A program made the position numbers and the translations under genes. Below the pieces are notes generated by a model, which was not told the DNA's origin, searched no databases, and saw only the letters and a program-made list of their open reading frames with translations. Positions 35,447-64,000 of a stretch of DNA of 64,000 bases are shown one piece after another. This stretch comes from an uncultured virus (IMG/VR IMGVR_UViG_3300029288_000091) (lineage: Duplodnaviria > Heunggongvirae > Uroviricota > Caudoviricetes), in IMG/VR virus record IMGVR_UViG_3300029288_000091. One strand, given 5' to 3'. Numbering within the stretch: the first letter of the stretch is position 1; every line of letters starts with the position of its first letter.

Positions 35447-35479
35447 AAAAAAACCGCCTGGTTTTTTAGGACCAGGCGG
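35447..35479 (-). terminator. intrinsic terminator / attenuator hairpin
   Basis: CCGCCTGGT-loop-ACCAGGCGG followed by U7. Confidence 0.85.
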
Positions 35480-35506
35480 CATCAAGTCATCAAAAACTAT
35501 TATATA

Positions 35507-35650
35507 TTATCCGCCTGGTGGTCTAGTTTCGCGATTATCTTTACCCAATACTGCTGGGAGTTCAATGGCGGAAACTATACGCACACATCCCCAGCTAGCT
35601 AGATGCTTATAACTAAAAGGCTGTGATGTTTGACGTATAAATGATAACAT
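35507..35650 (-). CDS. putative 47-aa leader peptide
   Basis: GGAG RBS + ATG; the final codons (PPGG) carry an anti-terminator strand. Confidence 0.5.
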   Translation of the reverse strand: MLSFIRQTSQPFSYKHLASWGCVRIVSAIELPAVLGKDNRETRPPGG

Positions 35651-35728: not shown

Positions 35729-37444
35729 TTAATAATTGGTTCTAACATACTCCAATGATGGCAAAATTCTTCCATCTTCAGAGTCCGCACCTTCGAATGT
35801 TAATATCTGATTGAAAATCTTTTCAGAAAATCCAGCCACAACATTAACGTTTCCAGATGCTACTTGTTTAGTACCATAGCCCTTAAGATCATAAAAATGG
35901 GCATAAACGTTAGGATTCACGGTTCTTTGATATAACTTAAACTTCTCTGCTACGCTGGCACCGTATCCCATAGAATCATAGCATTGCATGTCAGAAAGAA
36001 CAACAATTCTATCTACTTTGATTTTCTTTGCAAGCAAATAATCAAAAATTTTCCATGCATCCGTCGAGTGTCCACGAAAATTGTCTTCATAGGTTGCAAT
36101 TTTCTGCATGTTAGTAAGTACAGAGTTTCTAGTAGTAAGCGGCGGCCATACCACATTCGTTCCAAAAGCGCCAACCAAAGATTCTTTTGAGCGCTTATGT
36201 AGAATTGCACACAATACGTTTGCAGCATCCTTGATAGTCATAACCGAATCCTTGGATATTGGCGTGCTCATACTTCCAGAATTATCCGCAACAATACAAG
36301 TAACACCAGGAAGCATCGGTATGTTATCAATAGAATAATCAAGGGCAGTCTCAATAGCATCAAGCATGATCTGCATTTTCTGCTTGTCCCAAGAAGCCCT
36401 ATCACGTTCTACGCCAGCTCGCTTCATTATTCCAGAATACCAATTCTGTTCCTCTGGATAAAGAGTTCTATAAGCAGCCAAAAATCTAAATGGAAGTTGC
36501 TTAGATTTTTGAACATTCTCTCTATTGGATAATTGTTGAGCAACATATTTACACATTTCAATAGAAATATTTGCACCTAGGAAATTTCCAATATTACGTA
36601 AAAGTGCCATGTATCCCATATTCGGTATTACGGCTTCCCAAACCTCTTTCTTATTCCCAAACTGAGATAATAGAACTTCCCAAGTAACTCCCGCTTTTTT
36701 TGCTAATACGGGAATATCATTACTCCAAACCTTACGAGAAGTAAGTTCCTTACGTGCGGCAAACATAGGAGTAGCTTGAGGATCAATTACTTCTCCCTTA
36801 AGAATAAATTCGCGCACTGGCTTAGAGAATGGGTATCCTTCTTTACGTTCACAAAATCCCAAAAGATCCTTAAAAGACGGATGACCATCTGTATTATACT
36901 TCATAATCTCATATTCAGACATAGTAGATAAACGATCAGATACACCCTTCTTTAGACAAGCTGGAAAACCCTTCCAACCAAATAAATGTTCATAAGCACC
37001 AACAACTTGTTTTACTTCATCTGCGCGAGACGAAATAAGAGGCACGTATTTGCGCACAAACTGCTTAGTGTTCTCGTGCTTTGCCGCAACAGCTAGCATA
37101 ATTTGCGGAGTGGTTCTCATATTGAGTTCTTTACGAGCCCAATGCGCAAGAGCAAGTAAATCTCGCGGGCTATCACTTTCAGCTATTTCAAAACAAGCAT
37201 TTATAATCTTAACAGCTTGCTCATCAAGATTATCTGTATTGAACTCTTTATTTTTAAGATCTTCAAGCTTTTCTGTATCTTGGTAATATTTTGGCTCCAC
37301 AAACATGGCCGAACCAATAGTTCCAAGTAAATACTCTGCCGGGCTGGAAAAGTCATAGGCGAGCCCATTAGCTTTATTCTTAGTTGCTGCCTTGTTAACT
37401 TCTTGCTTTACGGTTTTCTTCTGATTTGTATTTAGTTTTGACAT
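35729..37444 (-). CDS. Ro60/Rsr (TROVE + vWA) RNA-binding protein
   Basis: N.A.G.AY, RADE, TWE..LS, MGYMALLRN, SKQLPFRF, MIDAS DNSGSM, LSDMQ, GFSEKIF. Confidence 0.93.
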   Translation of the reverse strand: MSKLNTNQKKTVKQEVNKAATKNKANGLAYDFSSPAEYLLGTIGSAMFVEPKYYQDTEKLEDLKNKEFNTDNLDEQAVKIINACFEIAESDSPRDLLALAHWARKELNMRTTPQIMLAVAAKHENTKQFVRKYVPLISSRADEVKQVVGAYEHLFGWKGFPACLKKGVSDRLSTMSEYEIMKYNTDGHPSFKDLLGFCERKEGYPFSKPVREFILKGEVIDPQATPMFAARKELTSRKVWSNDIPVLAKKAGVTWEVLLSQFGNKKEVWEAVIPNMGYMALLRNIGNFLGANISIEMCKYVAQQLSNRENVQKSKQLPFRFLAAYRTLYPEEQNWYSGIMKRAGVERDRASWDKQKMQIMLDAIETALDYSIDNIPMLPGVTCIVADNSGSMSTPISKDSVMTIKDAANVLCAILHKRSKESLVGAFGTNVVWPPLTTRNSVLTNMQKIATYEDNFRGHSTDAWKIFDYLLAKKIKVDRIVVLSDMQCYDSMGYGASVAEKFKLYQRTVNPNVYAHFYDLKGYGTKQVASGNVNVVAGFSEKIFNQILTFEGADSEDGRILPSLEYVRTNY

Positions 37445-37902
37445 CTTATCCTCCTCCGACCTCCGGTTTTAATACCGGGGAAATGTTTTGAGATAAATTT
37501 CTGATCGTTATCAATGTCACGTTGCTGGATCCAAAATGAACTAGCAAATGTTTTAGTCGACAAATGTGTTCTTACTTTTTGATAAAACTCTGGTAGTTCT
37601 TTAGTTGCGCGTTTATATTTTCTAATGTGTACCTTTGGATAACCACCAAACTGCGTTGCTGTTATATCTATAATATAACCGTCGTATTCATTGTAGGCGT
37701 GTCCAATGCCTTCGCTGATTTTAATATTAATCCCTACTCTTTTACATGCGAGATGTAACTGAATTGCTGCTCGTCCACAATATCCGCCCAAGCGACAACC
37801 AGCCCAACCTTCATTCTCTTCGATTTTTTCAAACACATTGCGAACTTTTTTCGCTATTTTTTTAATCTTTTCAAGCTTTTTGTCTCGAACCGACTTTTTC
37901 AT
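37432..37902 (-). CDS. hypothetical protein
   Basis: G.C..A..H....IIDITATQF transglutaminase-like pattern. Confidence 0.6.
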   Translation of the reverse strand: MKKSVRDKKLEKIKKIAKKVRNVFEKIEENEGWAGCRLGGYCGRAAIQLHLACKRVGINIKISEGIGHAYNEYDGYIIDITATQFGGYPKVHIRKYKRATKELPEFYQKVRTHLSTKTFASSFWIQQRDIDNDQKFISKHFPGIKTGGRRRIRCQN

Positions 37903-38462
37903 TTTCGTTTCCAATAAGGTTGAAATTGCGTCCCATCGTCCCATCCATAACCATCGCACATTGCTTGTAAACGAGCATATGAACGCGAGCCGGGACCTGT
38001 CGCATATGGTTCATCGTACACAGTAAGTCGGTTATCATTTATAAAAGAATGTTCAATTTTATCTACTTCCATATCAAAATTCTGCTCTATTTTTTCTATT
38101 TGATAATTGGGCAGATCATTAAGATCTCCTGGCAATTTTCCACGTTCGATCATTTCTTCAAAATGAATGGCAGCAAAGATATTCCAAGCTGCTTGGGCTA
38201 GGTGATCTTCATCTCTCAAGCCTTCAATATATTGAAAAATATGACGAATGGCACTATCAAGAGCGCGAGATATTGGAAAGCCCTTTTCCCAATTCCTATC
38301 CCCATGGTTAGCTGCACCTCTTTCATATACACCAGCAAGACGCTTTAAAGCCATAGGAGAAATTAAAACATATTTTCCTTTGCTAATAGAATTGTCGCGC
38401 GTTGCCCCACTACTATATTCTTGTTTTGTTCCAGAAAACTTTGTTTCGTATTTCTTACTCAT
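37899..38462 (-). CDS. dATP/dGTP diphosphohydrolase-like (DUF5664)
   Basis: SGATRD..KG..LI..AL.RLA..YERGA....RNWEKG..DSA.RH..EDHLAQAAWN. Confidence 0.82.
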   Translation of the reverse strand: MSKKYETKFSGTKQEYSSGATRDNSISKGKYVLISPMALKRLAGVYERGAANHGDRNWEKGFPISRALDSAIRHIFQYIEGLRDEDHLAQAAWNIFAAIHFEEMIERGKLPGDLNDLPNYQIEKIEQNFDMEVDKIEHSFINDNRLTVYDEPYATGPGSRSYARLQAMCDGYGWDDGTQFQPYWKRK

Positions 38463-38682: not shown

Positions 38683-38896
38683 CCAAATCTCCCCACTTTC
38701 TAGCGTACTCCATAATTCTATCATGAACATCACCTAAAGTTTCAAGCCAATCAACCATTAAATCGCCTGCTGAATTCCCCCACTTATCAAATTCTTCAGT
38801 ATCTTCTCCAAGCTCTTCTTTATCGTACATCCACTTACTAACCGCATCACTTGCTTTTGATACGGCCTCTAGTGCTTCTTTGGCTTTATTTGACAT
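38675..38896 (-). CDS. hypothetical protein
   Basis: Short ORF in run. Confidence 0.55.
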   Translation of the reverse strand: MSNKAKEALEAVSKASDAVSKWMYDKEELGEDTEEFDKWGNSAGDLMVDWLETLGDVHDRIMEYARKWGDLDD

Positions 38897-39599
38897 GTTT
38901 TTCTTTCCAATCTTCTTTAAGAACACTAAAATCATGGAACTCTTCTTTTATTTTCTTAACAAATATTGTTTTATATTCCTGAAGTATTTTAGCGTTACTG
39001 GGCATTCGTTTAAGATAAGGCTCCAATTCTGGAAAACAAACAGCCATATCTTCTTTGCTATATAATTCAATTCCTTGTAATAAACCCAAACATTGACCAA
39101 TTTGGAAAGCCACATGTTTGTAGAACTCAATCAAATCTTGATTGTTTTTACCTAAGTCCACAACTTTTTCAAAATCAATTTGTTCTAATACTTGGATTCT
39201 CTTTTCTGTATTACTTCTCAAAGCTTCTTTTACAACCGTTCTATATTCAGATCGTGATAAAAATGATAAAATAATACGAATAGCTCTAGCAACTTTCAAT
39301 GCCACATCGCGCGGCAGAATTTTGATTGTTTGTAGTGGACAAAATTGTTCATGTAAATGATAGGTGGCTAGTATAGAATTATTACATTCATCCGGCGTAC
39401 CTTTAAATACTTCTACAATTGTTCCATCTTTTATTACTGCTAAATTTATATTAAGTTTCTTATTATGTAATATTGGTAGTAAAGACTTTTCAAAGTCTAG
39501 ACATAGACTTTTACATTCTTGAATAGAAGGAATAGTATCTAAAAAAACCATAATATCGTAGTCTATGCTACTTTGTGAACCAAAAATATTGAAAATCAT
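38886..39599 (-). CDS. putative Pol-beta-like nucleotidyltransferase
   Basis: N-terminal FGS...IDYDI (GS/DxD) motif. Confidence 0.5.
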   Translation of the reverse strand: MIFNIFGSQSSIDYDIMVFLDTIPSIQECKSLCLDFEKSLLPILHNKKLNINLAVIKDGTIVEVFKGTPDECNNSILATYHLHEQFCPLQTIKILPRDVALKVARAIRIILSFLSRSEYRTVVKEALRSNTEKRIQVLEQIDFEKVVDLGKNNQDLIEFYKHVAFQIGQCLGLLQGIELYSKEDMAVCFPELEPYLKRMPSNAKILQEYKTIFVKKIKEEFHDFSVLKEDWKEKHVK

Positions 39600-40066: not shown

Positions 40067-40094
40067 ACTATTTCTCCTTAAGTTTTATAGAAAA

Positions 40095-40167
40095 TTCCCC
40101 CAGTTGGAATCGAACCAACATCAGACGGGTCAGAGCCGCCCGTTTTAAACCGTTAAACTATAGGGGA
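40095..40167 (-). tRNA. tRNA-Gln(CTG)
   Basis: Cloverleaf, loop CTCTGAC, TTCGATT. Confidence 0.9.
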
Positions 40168-40185
40168 ATAAAGTAAGGAAGGATT

Positions 40186-40298
40186 GCGGGGAAAAGCGCA
40201 AAGAGTACGATTTATGAATATCCGTCCCTATCGACTAAAGTGGCTCTCGAATTCCACGGATGCCCTGGTAAATGAAGTAACTCCTTACTGGACCTCGC
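40186..40298 (-). ncRNA. YrlA-like Y RNA with permuted tRNA-like module
   Basis: 5'/3' closing stems GCGAGG/CCCCGC and GTAAGGAGT/ACTCTTTGC; internal TTCGAGA T-like hairpin followed by a GG D-like hairpin; lies between tRNAs near Ro60. Confidence 0.65.
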
Positions 40299-40302
40299 AA
40301 AG

Positions 40303-40375
40303 TTGGGGAAGTAGGATTTGAACCCACATTGCCAGATTCAAAGTCTGGAAGACTAAGCCATTGTCGTATTCCCCA
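40303..40375 (-). tRNA. tRNA-Gln(TTG)
   Basis: Cloverleaf, CCAGA-CTTTGAA-TCTGG. Confidence 0.9.
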
Positions 40376-40379
40376 AGAA

Positions 40380-40453
40380 AGCGCCTAGAGGGATTCGAAC
40401 CCTCTCGAATAGAGTGGAAGTCTATCATGCTAACCGTTAAACATCATAGGCGC
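40380..40453 (-). tRNA. tRNA-Gly(TCC)
   Basis: GCGCCTA/TAGGCGC, loop CTTCCAC, TTCGAAT, U73. Confidence 0.92.
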
Positions 40454-40456
40454 ATA

Positions 40457-40531
40457 AACCAGGAATAAATCGACCAGGGAGCTTGATACAATTAAAAGTT
40501 GTGAAGTATCCCTGAAATCTGGACCTTGGTT
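40457..40531 (-). ncRNA. minimal Y-RNA-like element
   Basis: Shares AGGTCCAG..TACTTCA with 40186-40298; closing stems AACCAAGG/CCTGGTT and CAGGGA/TCCCTG. Confidence 0.6.
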
Positions 40532-40533
40532 AT

Positions 40534-40607
40534 TGGTTGCTCAGCACGGAGTCAAACCGTGAACTTCCGGACTTGGGCCGGAAATGATTACGTTTCACTA
40601 CTGAGCG
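40534..40607 (-). tRNA. atypical tRNA, anticodon CAA, initiator-like acceptor stem
   Basis: CGCTCAG/CTGAGCA-A-CCA, TCCGG-CCCAAGT-CCGGA, short variable loop. Confidence 0.7.
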
Positions 40608-40610
40608 GTG

Positions 40611-40681
40611 CGGTTCCAGAGGGAGTTAAACCCTCGCCGTTCGGGCGACAACCGAATATTCTATCGCTAAACTATGGAACC
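40611..40681 (-). tRNA. tRNA-Asp(GTC)
   Basis: GGTTCCA/TGGAACC, loop TTGTCGC, G73; T loop TTTAACT. Confidence 0.8.
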
Positions 40682-41184: not shown

Positions 41185-41402
41185 TTATCTCTCCCTAAAA
41201 ACTTTTCAACAGTATTAATAGCATCTTTAGTTGATTCTATTTTTTGCTCTGAAATTGTACAAACACTATCTACAAAACTTTTACCACTAAACATTAAACT
41301 AATAATTCTAAGAGTTTTGTTAATAGATCCAAAAACATCTAATAGAATTACAATTGGCATCGTACATAAAAGAACTATTGCAATAATTATTTTCTTAATC
41401 AT
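41181..41402 (-). CDS. small membrane protein
   Basis: Hydrophobic N-terminus. Confidence 0.5.
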   Translation of the reverse strand: MIKKIIIAIVLLCTMPIVILLDVFGSINKTLRIISLMFSGKSFVDSVCTISEQKIESTKDAINTVEKFLGRDK

Positions 41403-42237
41403 GTGCCTTCTCTATAACTTCTTTTAACATATAATATAAAATGTTGGGGCAATTATTACTAAGACCGCTCATTGTTCCACAGTTTAATTCTATTACAATC
41501 CATTCGCCTTCGGCGGTCTGTGCAACATCAATGGTATAGAAATTAGAATTATCTCCAACTCTTTCAATTATATCAAATATTAATTTTCCTGGAACCACGT
41601 CAGCGCATGGAACCAAACCAAATTTTTCAGCAATGTCCTCTGCAAAATTTGACCAATAAAATGCTCCGCATAATATCTGTTTGTATGCTATAAAAAATCT
41701 AAATTCTTTAGATATGGGCAACCCTCTAATTCCAACGGCGTAGTTATATAATGGAATAAATTTTCTAATATAAATATCTTGGCATCCAATTAAAGTATCA
41801 TCTTGGAGTTTACAATAAATTTCCATTACTTTGTTGCGATCTTCTGCAAACATATGGGTATCCCAAAGAAATTTCTTAGAGTTTGTTTTTCCTTTTAAAA
41901 CAAATGCGCCTTTTTCATTAATAGGAACATCATACGGGCGAAACCAAGTCTTCGGAGTAAGATCTTCTATATCCCAATAATAATTGTTCATATCAGCTAT
42001 ATATTCGTGTTGGCGATATGAATTTATAAGTTTCGCTCCAGCTTTATTAATATCTCTTTCTTGTTCTTCATAATATGGCAAACTCGAATATCTAGGTATA
42101 ACTAAATCCCCTTTTTGGATATCAACTCTACTATTTGTACAATAGAAATACCTTCTCATTGTTTCTAATTCTTGATCAAAACTTATATCACATGGGTCGC
42201 GGTATAAAATTACAGGTCTCATTTCTTGCTTTTCCAA
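41395..42237 (-). CDS. ATP-grasp protein (R2K / DUF4343-like)
   Basis: FVLKG..NS.K..W, EFRFF, YWS, IDVA......WIVIELN.G..SG. Confidence 0.8.
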   Translation of the reverse strand: MEKQEMRPVILYRDPCDISFDQELETMRRYFYCTNSRVDIQKGDLVIPRYSSLPYYEEQERDINKAGAKLINSYRQHEYIADMNNYYWDIEDLTPKTWFRPYDVPINEKGAFVLKGKTNSKKFLWDTHMFAEDRNKVMEIYCKLQDDTLIGCQDIYIRKFIPLYNYAVGIRGLPISKEFRFFIAYKQILCGAFYWSNFAEDIAEKFGLVPCADVVPGKLIFDIIERVGDNSNFYTIDVAQTAEGEWIVIELNCGTMSGLSNNCPNILYYMLKEVIEKAHD

Positions 42238-46279: not shown

Positions 46280-47212
<933 letters not shown>

Positions 47213-49108: not shown

Positions 49109-49178
49109 TATCCAGGAATAATCGCTAAGAGTTCTATTCGTATCAATGATGAAGTATCTCTTAACTGGGCCTTGGATA
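49109..49178 (-). ncRNA. third Y-RNA-like element (minimal)
   Basis: TATCCAAGG-CCCA-GTTAAGAG-ATACTTCA..CTCTTAGC-GATTATT-CCTGGATA; same fold as 40457-40531 with compensatory changes. Confidence 0.6.
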
Positions 49179-49281
49179 ATTTCTATTATTATATTAGATT
49201 TAATTAGTCGACAAAGCGCGCCAAAAATTTCGAATCTAAAAGGTCCAACGAACTTTTTTTCTCGATTCACATGCGCGCAAT

Positions 49282-56462: not shown

Positions 56463-58055
56463 CTATATGCCATGGCAGTTTTTCCATTTTACCGCTTTTC
56501 CATTTATTTTTTTTCCACAAGGACAAGGGTCGTTTCTACCAATTTTTAACTTTCCAACAGCCCTATCAATAATTAATATTCCCTCTAGATGATCACAATT
56601 ATGTACTAATGTATTATTAGCAAAAAAATTATGGCAATCTTCTACTTCAATATTATATAAAGCACTCTCCATTTTTTTAAGATAAAAAACTTCTTTAATT
56701 TTTTTACATGATATGTCCAAAGGGATTTTATTAAACAAATAATTGTTTGATATAAATCTATATCTATATGGCAATTTATATTTCATTGATTCGTGTACAT
56801 ATTTTGAAATTAAATTAAAAAACCTCTCAGAATTTTTTTTATCTAAATGAAGATAGAACATGTCTTTTTTATTGACTAGTTTTTTATAAATTTTGAAATC
56901 TAGATTAAATTTTGAAAATAGAATTGACACGCAATTTTTAATGTCTTCTATTTCAAAACCCTCAGTATGGATGCTAGCTCTATCTCTATCTAAACAACCA
57001 TCATCCATATACCAAAAAGCTAAAGAAATTTCATTTATTAAATTAATAATATTAGATGCTTTCTTATTTGGAGTATAAGAAATTTCTCGTAATTTTTTCG
57101 TCTGTTCTGTTATGGGGCAATGTATAGAAAAATTTGTTTTTTCATCTCTAAAGCCGCTAAAACTTTTTGTTATATATCCACAAAATAAATCTTTTTTAAA
57201 CTCAGCATAGTCTTTAAAATTAATTCCATGGTTAAAAACTAATTCACCAGTTTTTGATATACACCCATCTCCCAATAAACAACCAAATATAGAAGACATT
57301 TGATCACTATTATAAAGTCCACACTCCCTTGTGCTTTTGTTATTAGACAAACGAACGGAATATTTACTAACCATATCTCTAGCTTGACAATATTTAATAT
57401 TAATTGTCGGAGTTAAAATATCTTCAATAAAACCACACAAATGATCTTCTGTGCATTTTAGAGACTTATGTGGAGAAGTTTTAGAAAATTTTAAAGAAAT
57501 CCATTTTTTATTTTCTATATTCATCTTTTTGCTCACGCCAATAATTTTCTTAAATTGCGTTGTACCACTACTATCAACACAAAGTACTCTACCATTATAT
57601 TTTGTTTTAATAACCCAACTAATAGTCTTTGGACCAAGTTCAGTATAAATTATTGATTGAGAAGTAAGACATTCATGTTCTATAATAGTTGCTACAAAAC
57701 CACAAGCAACAAAACCGGCAGGATGTAAATCATCAACAATAAAAATCTCTTTATGTCTTTGTGTATTAAAAGATTGTCCAGGTAGACTTAAACAACATTC
57801 GTTTTTATTTAAATACGAATTATTGCGCTCAAGTATTTTTGGATTAACAAGATCTATAAATTCATTAATTCCATTTGATGTATATCTAATTATAGCAGCC
57901 GATTTATTAATTCCAATTTGTGGTGCAGCCAACCCAACACCTGGAGTTATAGATTCATATAGATCTTTTTCTAACTTAGAAATAATATCTAATATCTCTT
58001 CTGGTTTTACTTTATCAGCTTTTTTTCTAAGTGTAGAAATATCAGTTACAATCAT
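56463..58055 (-). CDS. def: peptide deformylase with intein and C-terminal SEC-C motif
   Basis: GVGLAAPQIG, ECCLS, HE/CDH, GRNDPCPCG..KWKNCHG. Confidence 0.92.
   Translation of the reverse strand: MIVTDISTLRKKADKVKPEEILDIISKLEKDLYESITPGVGLAAPQIGINKSAAIIRYTSNGINEFIDLVNPKILERNNSYLNKNECCLSLPGQSFNTQRHKEIFIVDDLHPAGFVACGFVATIIEHECLTSQSIIYTELGPKTISWVIKTKYNGRVLCVDSSGTTQFKKIIGVSKKMNIENKKWISLKFSKTSPHKSLKCTEDHLCGFIEDILTPTINIKYCQARDMVSKYSVRLSNNKSTRECGLYNSDQMSSIFGCLLGDGCISKTGELVFNHGINFKDYAEFKKDLFCGYITKSFSGFRDEKTNFSIHCPITEQTKKLREISYTPNKKASNIINLINEISLAFWYMDDGCLDRDRASIHTEGFEIEDIKNCVSILFSKFNLDFKIYKKLVNKKDMFYLHLDKKNSERFFNLISKYVHESMKYKLPYRYRFISNNYLFNKIPLDISCKKIKEVFYLKKMESALYNIEVEDCHNFFANNTLVHNCDHLEGILIIDRAVGKLKIGRNDPCPCGKKINGKAVKWKNCHGI
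56598..57671 (-). mobile_element. intein (358 aa) with LAGLIDADG endonuclease
   Basis: CLTSQ start, CTEDH, GCLLGDG and LAFWYMDDG, YNIEV..HNFFAN..VHN then Cys. Confidence 0.93.
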
Positions 58056-61291: not shown

Positions 61292-61771
61292 TCAAATATT
61301 ATTCATTAATTTATTAGTAACAGAATTAAAAGTCAAAACTTTTTCAAAACCTTCTTCTTTTGTTGGGACCTCTAAATTACTATTCATATTCTCGATGATC
61401 CACTTTGGAACACCACGAAATTTAGGGCGTGCTATATTTCTAGCAAGTGAAACTTTGAGAGGACAAGGACAATATAAAGCCCAGACCTTATATCCATTAT
61501 CTATAGCCTTATTTATGTATTTTTTTCTTTTCTTAGACTTTGGAAAAGTTGCATCAAAAACAATAAGTTCATCTTCTCGCTCAAAAGCTTCTACCAGTAA
61601 AGAATCAGCTTTTTTCCATACAGCTCGAGCTGCCAACGATGTCCAAGGGTTTTCTTCAGTATAGCCTATAAAATTATCTGGAGAAATAACTACAGCATTA
61701 GGAAATTCGCTAGCAACAGCCGTAGTTTTTCCAGCTCCAGGCAAACCCACCGAGATTATAAATGTTTTCAT
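61292..61771 (-). CDS. P-loop kinase (AAA_33 / polynucleotide-kinase-like)
   Basis: GLPGAGKT, SPD, VFDAT, RN..R...VP, EEGF. Confidence 0.82.
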   Translation of the reverse strand: MKTFIISVGLPGAGKTTAVASEFPNAVVISPDNFIGYTEENPWTSLAARAVWKKADSLLVEAFEREDELIVFDATFPKSKKRKKYINKAIDNGYKVWALYCPCPLKVSLARNIARPKFRGVPKWIIENMNSNLEVPTKEEGFEKVLTFNSVTNKLMNNI

Positions 61772-61863
61772 ATATCCTCTAAATATTTATTTCTAAATTT
61801 ATCATCATATTTTTCTAAGAACCTAATTTCTCCGTCCTTATGCAATTTAATAAGTTTTGTCAA

Positions 61864-62628
61864 TTAAACGCCGGTATCCTCTATTTCAAACTCTTCGCTA
61901 TCTTCAACTTTTCGAACAAGATGTTTAGAATTAGGACTATAATCAAACCCAGCTTTCATAAAAGCTGTTTTAGTAACTCTTAATCTATTATCTGGAGTAA
62001 CAGTGGTTGAACCAATAGCTACGCTCCAATCTTCATCATCAGTGTCTAAAGATAAACAAATCTTATTATTTTTAAGAGCCATACCAACAACATCACCAGG
62101 ACGAAAATCAAAATCCCTAACCCATCCAATTGGAATTTCTAATCTGCCATCCGATTTACAGTAACATTCAAGCTCATTTTTATCAAAGCCCATATCACTA
62201 TTATCAGCAATTGTGTTTAACACATGCTGTGAATCATTAAAAGTAAATATTGGAGTTTGAATAGGAACTATAGGTGGTGGAGGAAGTATTGGGTGACAAG
62301 TTGTTGGAGCCGGTACTCCATCAGATTTCTTAGGAGGAATGGCGATCTGTTTTCTATTAAAATAAGAATCTGGGCTAACAGAAACATGGTGATAAAGATT
62401 TGTTTTTGTCTTAAGTTCACTTAAAAGTTCTACATCTATAAGTGTTCTCATATAACCAAAATCATCCAGTACGCTATCAGCAAACATTTGTCTAACAATT
62501 GGCGCGATATCTCTATGTCTTGCATCAGAAAATCCCTCTTGCTTAACAGTATTGCTCACATCCAAACTAGTAAATGATACCAAGTCATTACAAAAAGTCT
62601 TAACAATATTAAAAACTTTATTTTGCAT
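61864..62628 (-). CDS. hypothetical protein with C-terminal tandem AbrB/MraZ-like motifs
   Basis: SDGRLEIP and DNRLRV after a Pro-rich linker. Confidence 0.65.
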   Translation of the reverse strand: MQNKVFNIVKTFCNDLVSFTSLDVSNTVKQEGFSDARHRDIAPIVRQMFADSVLDDFGYMRTLIDVELLSELKTKTNLYHHVSVSPDSYFNRKQIAIPPKKSDGVPAPTTCHPILPPPPIVPIQTPIFTFNDSQHVLNTIADNSDMGFDKNELECYCKSDGRLEIPIGWVRDFDFRPGDVVGMALKNNKICLSLDTDDEDWSVAIGSTTVTPDNRLRVTKTAFMKAGFDYSPNSKHLVRKVEDSEEFEIEDTGV

Positions 62629-62812
62629 ATCTATTAACCTTTCTTTGTTTGACGGCTTTTTTATAGGCTTCGTTTAAAATGCCAATCTGAACTATATTTT
62701 TAAAACGAATATCTCTCCAATCAAGTTCTTTATTTTTTTTCTGTTCCTCTTGCTTTTCTTTTTCTTTTTCTTTATCTTGTTTTTGTTCTTCTGTTTCCTT
62801 TTCTTTGTCCAT
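62618..62812 (-). CDS. small charged hypothetical protein
   Basis: Short ORF overlapping its neighbour. Confidence 0.5.
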   Translation of the reverse strand: MDKEKETEEQKQDKEKEKEKQEEQKKNKELDWRDIRFKNIVQIGILNEAYKKAVKQRKVNRYAK

Positions 62813-62827
62813 TTTATAAAAGATCTC

Positions 62828-64000
62828 CTACATATTAGTTTGAAACTCAACAATATATTTAAGTCTATGTTGTTGATTAGGTCCTGACGAATTATAAATC
62901 ATATTTTCAGAATTATAAAGCCCGCCACCAGGAACAGCGTATACACTATGACAACCACTTGGAGGTTGTCTAAAAAATTGTGAATACGTAACAACATGCG
63001 GTTTACCAACGATTACATCTGCTAGGAACATAAAAACACTATCATTCCCAGAACTTCCCGACCAATAAGCACCTTTACTACCACAATAATTCATGCTTTT
63101 AGAACTTGATTCAGCAAAATAAAGAGCATCTCCAAACATTGAACCAGTATATACGGCTCCAGATGGTCTAATTGTCAATCCTCTTGTAATAATACCAACC
63201 ATATTTTGTGGTCTGGTGCCATGCCATAATGGCCAAACATTAGATTGTGTAAATAATTTCCTCTCGTCATTAGATAAATCTGGGCGCTGTAAAGTAGTAA
63301 ATCTAGGTTTCTCTAATTTTCCACTTATTTCTCTAGACACACGCTCTATATTACTACTAAAATAACCACTTTCTTGCTTTCTGGCAAGCCTATATATGTT
63401 GAAAATTTTAACTTTTCCCAAAAAAGAGTGGTTTGATGCCCTAGTTTCATTAACTAAATTAACTATCCAAGAGTTAACTGGATCCTTAGGATCGAGCCAT
63501 TCCAAATAAGCATTTAATTTTTTATATTGTTCATCTACAATGCTGTCGTTTCCCATAACATTTTCAACATTTTTGGCATCAAGAAATGTATCCAACATAT
63601 CATGCTTAGCCATAATTTTATCCAACGAATTAAGCCTTAATGAAAAAGGATCAATTTTGTGTGGTAATACGTGTGGAATTAAACTATAAAACTGAGATGT
63701 TAAGTTATCATAAACATCTTCATTGGTTTTAGTTTTTGAATTTATTCTACTTTTACAATCATCTAGAACTATTCTACCTTTATCAATCTGTTCTTTAGTT
63801 AATTGTCCCAATGGACACTTAAGAGTCATAGTAATATATTTACCAGTGACACCAAACCAATTTGAAACCAATCTTTGTACTTCTGGATGTAATAAACTTG
63901 CCACTACTGTTTTTTCAGTGGTTCCAGTAATACCAGTCATAGGCTTTTTAATTTGTTGAGCACCATCGGAGCCAACAGAAGTAATAGCTAAATCAACTTC
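62828..64000 (-). CDS. PARP-family ADP-ribosyltransferase (regulatory + catalytic domains), 5'-partial
   Basis: CPLGQLT..QI, FYSLIPH, LWHGT, GSMFG..LYFA..SSKS..Y, NSE.MIY; frame stays open to the window edge. Confidence 0.92.
   Translation of the reverse strand, partial: EVDLAITSVGSDGAQQIKKPMTGITGTTEKTVVASLLHPEVQRLVSNWFGVTGKYITMTLKCPLGQLTKEQIDKGRIVLDDCKSRINSKTKTNEDVYDNLTSQFYSLIPHVLPHKIDPFSLRLNSLDKIMAKHDMLDTFLDAKNVENVMGNDSIVDEQYKKLNAYLEWLDPKDPVNSWIVNLVNETRASNHSFLGKVKIFNIYRLARKQESGYFSSNIERVSREISGKLEKPRFTTLQRPDLSNDERKLFTQSNVWPLWHGTRPQNMVGIITRGLTIRPSGAVYTGSMFGDALYFAESSSKSMNYCGSKGAYWSGSSGNDSVFMFLADVIVGKPHVVTYSQFFRQPPSGCHSVYAVPGGGLYNSENMIYNSSGPNQQHRLKYIVEFQTNM

Follow-up and report, generated by a model that had tools for sequence, protein, structure and literature searches.

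Genomic context of the element

The window, i.e. the whole stretch of 64,000 nucleotides analysed here, is part of a 243,788-base viral contig. Its DNA was found letter-identical in contigs of the DNA runs X1 and X2 and piecewise in X3, all of which are possibly its source. Genes for GroEL, IF-3, peptide deformylase, purine enzymes, and HNH nucleases fit a large phage, while among the window proteins scanned no clear capsid or terminase gene was found. The minus strand carries a Ro60 gene, which was missed by the initial annotation, a tRNA gene cluster, and three RNA elements named Y RNA 1 to 3:

35729..37444, minus strand: TROVE/Ro60 (Rsr) gene, 571 aa, with a vWA MIDAS-type DxSxS motif (DNSGS, residue 387)
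40094..40681, minus strand: tRNA cluster Asp-Leu-(Y RNA 2)-Gly-Gln-(Y RNA 1)-Gln
40184..40300, minus strand: Y RNA 1, the element studied, about 117 nt, ends inferred from the closing stem
40457..40531, minus strand: Y RNA 2, short hairpin (YrlB-like) between tRNA-Leu and tRNA-Gly, carrying AGGTCCAG
49110..49177, minus strand: Y RNA 3, short hairpin

The Ro60 gene is located 2.7 kb downstream of Y RNA 1 on the same strand. Its product matched Pfam TROVE with 6.7e-39 and vWA_Ro60 with 5.3e-6, the latter slightly below the cut-off. A profile of this protein and 33 close relatives gave structural matches exclusively to Ro60 (9L5Y, 9KOP, 9NEN, 1YVP, and 2NVO), the best being Ro60 of Thermus phage phiLo (E 1.1e-28). 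About 30 relatives of the window Ro60 are 55-86% identical to it. The window Ro60 groups with those of the loci L018 and L019 (98/97); that of L016 lies outside this group at an unresolved fork.

Y RNA 1 is flanked by tRNA-Gln(TTG) (40302-40375) and tRNA-Gln(CTG) (40094-40168) and starts 1-2 nt behind the former. The cluster is probably transcribed as a single precursor; a promoter scan stayed at chance level (25 vs. 20.0 ± 4.6). We rejected the idea that the tRNA-Gln neighbours matter to Y RNA 1, as they are not kept at the orthologous locus in a second phage (L016:8362-8474; nhmmer E 1.9e-9). This ortholog is located 1.5 kb before a Ro60 gene whose product is 63% identical and has no tRNA within 3 kb, so that the tRNA-Gln genes next to Y RNA 1 are regarded as incidental.

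Detection and extent of Y RNA 1

The initial annotation had placed a YrlA-like RNA with a circularly permuted tRNA elbow at 40186..40298. These coordinates are right, with the model match extending to 40184-40300, and all motifs quoted there are present between the two tRNA-Gln genes on the minus strand. As it had anticipated for tRNA scanners, neither ARAGORN nor Rfam makes a call at the element. The check it had proposed with the Rfam YrlA model (RF02553) was negative: no match was obtained at E ≤ 10 in the 1001 bases scanned. The predicted folding energy is also at chance level (z = −0.92; 32 of 200 shuffles were equally stable). A fold of the plus strand was rejected, being at chance level as well (z −0.03). 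As for a small protein, the six stop-to-stop frames overlapping the element comprise 32-52 codons and mostly cross tRNA genes.

With a length between 80 and 220 nt, ends paired as a long stem, and a position on the Ro60/TROVE strand within about 4 kb of the gene, Y RNA 1 agrees with the Y RNA class in these respects. For YrlA RNAs, too, a distance of at most 4 kb from a Ro60 gene of the same strand has been reported (Chen 2014, PMC4201824). The element does not contain the cloverleaf of a tRNA or tmRNA, with its acceptor stem and an anticodon or tag. Of the suggested RNase P/Z processing, cleavage at an acceptor stem is therefore inapplicable.

Closing module and conserved box

The paired ends of Y RNA 1 form a bulged stem, which we refer to as the closing module, followed by a second stem and a conserved box:

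40289..40299, minus strand: closing module, 5′ strand, with a 4-bp basal stem, one bulged A, GG, and unpaired UCCA; putative Ro60-binding
40274..40288, minus strand: stem 2 (5′ strand) and G(A/T)TACTTC box
40185..40205, minus strand: closing module, 3′ strand, with the stem-2 partner, a pyrimidine-rich loop, CC, and the basal stem

Over 11 family RNAs, the six basal pairs were paired in 97% of 66 cells and four of the six showed changes on both sides, counted on a structure derived from the same 11 sequences. None of 500 shuffles reached the basal-pair score, and slid controls dropped to 28-55%. The conserved box reads GTTACTTC or GATACTTC in 263 of the 312 matches of the family set described below, and at the equivalent position the published YrlA alignment shows GGTTACC(T/A)C, which is similar (Chen 2014, PMC4201824). 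The closing module was found 12 times near close Ro60 relatives, and Y RNAs 2 and 3 share it as well. In the G001 record, all five matches of the forward pattern are located ahead of Ro60 on the strand of this gene, while controls gave none in 318 kb. Two copies of the 5′ motif AGGTCCAG are present in the window (in Y RNA 1 and at 40519-40526), which alone is weak evidence because 8 of 100 shuffles also reach two copies. The published YrlA motif GNCGAAN0-1G near the 5′ end is not found in Y RNA 1, which has GGTCCAG (GGUCCAG in the RNA) instead; as only 3 of the 312 family matches carry it, this motif does not describe the present branch. By analogy with the Y RNAs described by Chen 2014, the closing module would be the part that docks on Ro60.

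Structure of the tRNA-like end

The upper end of Y RNA 1 can be divided into the following parts:

40258..40261, minus strand: junction-closing 4-bp helix at the anticodon-stem position, pairing with 40220-40223; two of the four pairs compensatory in L016
40240..40257, minus strand: T-like arm, 4-bp stem and 10-nt loop with TTCGAGA
40236..40239, minus strand: TTTA linker, 2 nt plus a U8-A9-like TA, replacing the YrlA acceptor hairpin; identical in L016
40224..40235, minus strand: D-like arm, 3-bp stem and 6-nt loop GATAGG

The 42-nt cores of Y RNA 1 and the L016 ortholog can be aligned without gaps and differ at nine positions. Eight of the 11 proposed core pairs are unchanged, three are compensatory, and none is broken. 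Six of the differences make up the three compensatory pairs, two convert the A.G mismatch at the T loop to G-C, and one lies in that loop. In L016 the T-like arm thus has 5 bp and an 8-nt loop, and the D-like arm shows one compensatory pair with an invariant loop. Such a pattern is expected by chance with P = 3.7e-4 under random placement and 0.0022 under a stricter null; the T/D structure had been proposed before L016 was seen, and the covariation rests on this one ortholog. Two of the three compensatory pairs also fit a competing rod-like fold, which is weighed below, and only the D-stem pair and the fifth T-stem pair gained in L016 tell the two folds apart.

According to the energy predictions, the T and D hairpins of the window copy are outside the minimum-energy fold: constrained to the junction, the RNA reaches −29.6 vs. 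−31.8 kcal/mol, corresponding to an ensemble probability of about 0.014. The predicted probability of the T hairpin is 0.015 in the window copy and 0.99 in L016, that of the D-like arm 0.02-0.04, and that of the whole junction in the full-length ensemble of L016 0.013.

Hairpin 1 begins 16 nt after the conserved box, the mode for the T arm of relatives being 19. TTCGAGA is the T loop of Salmonella YrlA and of the Rfam YrlA consensus, and it is absent from the ten commonest T loops among the relatives. There is no nucleotide between the closing helix and the T stem, i.e. no variable loop, and both the window copy and L016 have only TT before the TA in place of the closed acceptor-stem hairpin that separates T and D arms in YrlA. 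As acceptor hairpin and variable loop are missing, the T loop carries an extra base, and the 6-nt D loop has its GG next to the stem, the Levitt pair and base triples of the YrlA type cannot form. A side-by-side contact of the T-like and D-like loops may still form. At the level of secondary structure, it is moderately supported that the reduced head is a three-way junction of small size carrying one T-like and one D-like arm, while the odds that it folds into a real T/D elbow are rather low, somewhat under one in three.

The structural claims of the initial annotation can be judged accordingly. A YrlA-like RNA is supported, more strongly than that annotation could tell, by the Ro60 gene 2.7 kb away, by the covarying module common to RNAs of YrlA topology, and by hairpin 1 at the T-arm position of relatives. 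Of the permuted elbow, the order of T before D fits, but acceptor hairpin, variable loop, and canonical loops are missing. The letters of the ATTTA/TAAAT helix are present, but the helix is broken in L016; the GCATCC/GGATAT helix contains a C.A mismatch, and of its pairs only the inner four are conserved. The T and D hairpins themselves gain from the compensatory pairs in L016 and lose from the predicted lowest-energy fold.

Family search and diversity of relatives

For the detection of relatives, a covariance model was built from Y RNA 1 and L016 only (R1). With this model, 42 matches were obtained in a first group of 100 sources and 14 in a further 72, without exception on the Ro60 strand. 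Y RNA 3, which was absent from the training of R1, matched with E 4.5e-7, and Y RNA 2 (75 nt; fold z −2.33) with E 0.22. Just upstream of Y RNA 3, a strong unannotated hairpin (49216-49278, minus strand) matched the model weakly (E 1.4). A second model (R2), for which 48 R1 matches from 26 sources served as the training set, yielded 203 matches in 97 sources, a count that includes duplicates and training sequences, and 164 in 72 sources outside training; all 367 lie on the Ro60 strand, and many show textbook YrlA topology. We discarded 44 rows whose E exceeded 0.001 as well as 14 that came from duplicate contigs and added the three window RNAs, so that the family set comprised 312 RNAs, 304 of them distinct.

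By crude rules, the 304 distinct RNAs were classified as short (113), T-then-D (108), T only (44), long without a strict T arm (34), and D-then-T (5); these rules put Y RNA 1 and L016 under the long RNAs with no T arm. The spacer from T to D arm is 12-100 nt in 105 of the 108 T-then-D relatives, the other three being misparses when inspected by eye, and the reduced form with its 2-nt link was present in 2 of the 304 (Y RNA 1 and L016). On the shared module the inserts vary from short hairpins via a T arm with a closed acceptor-like hairpin to a tRNA-Ile cloverleaf and canonical YrlA with V-T-AS-D topology. Near-whole tRNA-Ile cloverleaf inserts scored 41.4 and 53.8 bits with the Rfam tRNA model. 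Non-permuted tRNA-like inserts with an anticodon arm were observed at L004:6095-6205, L063:2952-3067, L083:1071-1201, and L068:1332-1442, the first two with Ile GAT; these RNAs are candidates for anticodon-nuclease decoys displayed on Ro60.

The RNA at L063:3184-3317 combines the shared closing module with the full V-T-AS-D topology and scored 31.1 bits with the Rfam YrlA model, comparable to the Gordonia phage Rabbitrun control (31.5 bits); both are under the gathering score of 69. In L019, the 3.1 kb analysed before Ro60 contain two RNAs of canonical YrlA topology and one short RNA. A scan of the 64-kb window with filters off revealed no canonical YrlA, nor did one of L016 reaching 10 kb, and judged from the DNA seen the reduced RNA may replace it in these two phages. 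In Clostridium intestinale, the distance from the end of one R2 match to Ro60 is 132 nt, and in Bacillus genomes it is 305 nt for two matches; for published YrlA RNAs, the distances listed are 132 nt for another strain of C. intestinale and 301-302 nt for B. mycoides and B. pseudomycoides (Chen 2014 Table S1, PMC4201824). These positions place Y RNA 1 in the same lineage as the published YrlA RNAs.

At the genome loci L103-L174, R2 revealed arrays of up to 6-7 Y-like RNAs, located upstream of Ro60 in Bacillota and mostly downstream in Bacteroidota, and many of the T-then-D RNAs at these loci have an anticodon-like hairpin before the T arm. Modelling of the closing module, not of the tRNA-like part, thereby finds 1-7 Y-like RNAs per Ro60 locus that are missed by Rfam, which suggests that the Y RNA repertoires of phages, Bacillota, and Bacteroidota are larger than listed. 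Chen 2014 Table S1 (PMC4201824) gives one YrlA match per species in the rows compared.

Three pattern scans of viral_contigs for further reduced-form orthologs returned the element's own contig and once, in addition, three chance matches lacking the module, and blastn of 50,697 phage records found no such ortholog at E ≤ 1. Two looser module scans of viral_contigs gave 73 and at least 120 stretches, almost all of them chance matches in coding DNA (80 loci inspected).

Likeness to known Y RNAs

The Y RNA class, including its presence in phages, has been known since 2014, with YrlA already reported in 22 phages (Chen 2014, PMC4201824). With YrlA (RF02553; Salmonella Typhimurium, 6CU1), Y RNA 1 shares the Ro60 linkage, the long stem of paired ends, the predicted order of a T-like arm 5′ of a D-like arm, the TA before the D stem, the TTCGAGA loop motif, and a similar box after the second stem. 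It differs by lacking an acceptor hairpin, which is replaced by a 2-nt link, and a variable loop; furthermore, its reduced form has an 8- or 10-nt T loop and a 6-nt D loop, whereas the D loop of YrlA has 8-9 nt. Pseudouridine 55 and dihydrouridine, introduced by TruB and DusA, are further marks of YrlA. Y RNA 1 is not a canonical YrlA and stands outside RF02553 proper. The sequence comparisons make it a member of the YrlA lineage of Y RNAs in which the tRNA-like domain is reduced. In the open-access literature searched, we found no description of a YrlA without both acceptor hairpin and variable loop. The L shape of YrlA is held by the Levitt pair and base triples (Wang 2018, bioRxiv 10.1101/312249), and the same work predicts this shape to be general to the family as well as an effector that reads the elbow.

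Y RNAs 2 and 3 resemble the long-hairpin Y RNAs YrlB (Salmonella, M. smegmatis) and Yrn2 (D. radiodurans), which are without the conserved two-arm junction of Y RNA 1. Thermus phage phiLo (9L5Y, 9KOP) likewise combines a phage Ro60 with several upstream Y-like RNAs (Yrl1/Yrl2). Those are stem-bulge-stem hairpins picked by a CGAA motif, and no T/D junction is reported for them in the passages of PMC12135203 considered. The vertebrate Y RNA, with the Ro60-contact motif GGUCCGA quoted in Chen 2014, shares GGUCC behind the basal stem but has another bulge position and 3′ strand and no tRNA-like domain. Y RNAs have also been proposed for a Listeria phage, namely abundant RNAs located upstream of its Rsr-like gene (PMC12282133).

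Proposed function and alternative explanations

Taken as a whole, the element is best explained as a phage Y RNA of the YrlA lineage that partners with the phage's own Ro60, docks on it through the bulged-stem module, and bears a reduced head serving as enzyme tether or gate; we assign this reading a probability of roughly 0.7. Y RNA 1 would probably be released from the polycistronic tRNA precursor as the flanking tRNAs mature, comparable to Yrn1/Yrn2 of D. radiodurans, of which Yrn2 is cut from a precursor containing tRNA (Chen 2014, PMC4201824). Its paired ends would then form the bulged-stem module and bind Ro60. As established for the class, Y RNA 1 would most likely serve as tether and gate, linking Ro60 to an RNA-processing enzyme of the host and controlling access to the Ro60 cavity during infection. 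Polynucleotide phosphorylase (PNPase) would be the best-precedented partner: it is tethered in D. radiodurans and co-purifies in Salmonella (Chen 2014, PMC4201824), and phiLo Ro60 binds phage Y-like RNAs and host PNPase, whose activity is lowered by Ro60 and the Yrl RNAs (PMC12135203). RNA repair would be the second candidate, as the window has kinase-like and nucleotidyltransferase-like genes and TROVE proteins of jumbo phages have been described as repair platforms (PMC7824862). A simple nuclease-decoy role is weakened for this anticodon-less form, since a damage-induced tRNA nuclease did not cut Salmonella YrlA (PMC7790460).

In the strong form of the initial annotation's reading, which is compatible with the best explanation and adds a specific tertiary fold to it, the arms dock loop to loop as a true tRNA elbow (D-loop GG against TTCGA), and Ro60 displays a decoy or scaffold for tRNA-binding proteins. 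Between phages with 63% identical Ro60 proteins, both loops are nearly invariant and the stems covary, the order of T arm, TA, and D arm is retained, and an elbow-reading YrlA effector has been predicted (Wang 2018, bioRxiv 10.1101/312249). Without a variable loop, however, the Levitt pair and base triples of YrlA are impossible, the GG immediately adjoins the D stem in a loop of 6 nt instead of 8-9 nt, the T loop is closed by an A.G mismatch in the window copy and has 8 nt in L016, and the elbow fold lies 2.2 kcal/mol above the minimum, so that we consider this docking rather unlikely. Somewhat less probable still is that Y RNA 1 binds Ro60 with an irregular-rod or switching upper end, in which the loop TCG pairs with CGA of the D arm, works like YrlB, and has kept its tRNA likeness as a relic. 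For the window copy, the rod is predicted to have the lowest energy, its pairs reaching probabilities of 0.93-0.97, and nine of its ten core pairs are kept in L016; one pair is lost there, however, and one becomes a wobble where the junction has a clean compensatory change, and in L016 the junction exceeds the rod in stability by 1.3 kcal/mol and the T hairpin has a probability of 0.99. That the element is a decayed tRNA or an inert, functionless spacer in the tRNA cluster would agree with its chance-level folding energy, its tRNA flanks, and the lack of an Rfam match. This is very improbable given that the ortholog lies away from tRNA genes 1.5 kb before Ro60, that the module covaries, that the window has three copies, and that the strand link to Ro60 is strict.

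Returning to the preferred reading of a Ro60-docking RNA, the retention in two distinct phages of a head that has lost acceptor hairpin and variable loop provides a natural deletion series that tests whether only the T and D arms matter. A more far-reaching idea, to which we give about a quarter of a chance, is that the head is a naturally minimised 42-nt elbow, its T-like and D-like loops docking next to each other on a three-way junction that has neither acceptor stem nor variable loop nor anticodon. It would be one of several interchangeable tRNA-derived heads which related large phages place on one Ro60-binding handle to recruit or soak up different tRNA-acting enzymes of the host. Such a set would comprise the short hairpin, the T-arm/acceptor minihelix, the whole anticodon-bearing tRNA-Ile cloverleaf, canonical YrlA, and the form of Y RNA 1. 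If true, the minimised elbow would pinpoint the feature read by the YrlA effector.

Further genes and signals in the window

Just downstream of the Ro60 gene, a 47-codon leader peptide ending in PPGG (35507-35650, minus strand) was observed, which overlaps the complement of a strong terminator hairpin (35453-35480, minus strand). The same layout of leader and terminator, with PGG ends and a motif like W-G/V/T-F/C-V/A-R, is present in L016, L004, L015, and L018. Leader and terminator look like a ribosome-controlled attenuator before a gene that is conserved in L016 and L018. A nucleotidyltransferase-like protein without Pfam match is encoded in the interval from Ro60 to the Y RNAs (38886-39599, minus strand; Atlas look-alikes 0.94-0.97). 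A dATP/dGTP diphosphohydrolase gene (37899-38462, minus strand) is kept just upstream of Ro60 in L016, L004, and L019, and a gene for an R2K-clade ATP-grasp protein (41395-42237, minus strand) is found near Ro60 in L019, too. Farther away, on the same strand, are a gene for a peptide deformylase with a LAGLIDADG intein (56463-58055) and genes for a polynucleotide-kinase-like protein and a PARP-family protein (61292-63940). An open reading frame at 46280-47041 (minus strand) contains about 26 asparagine codons in a run near its start.
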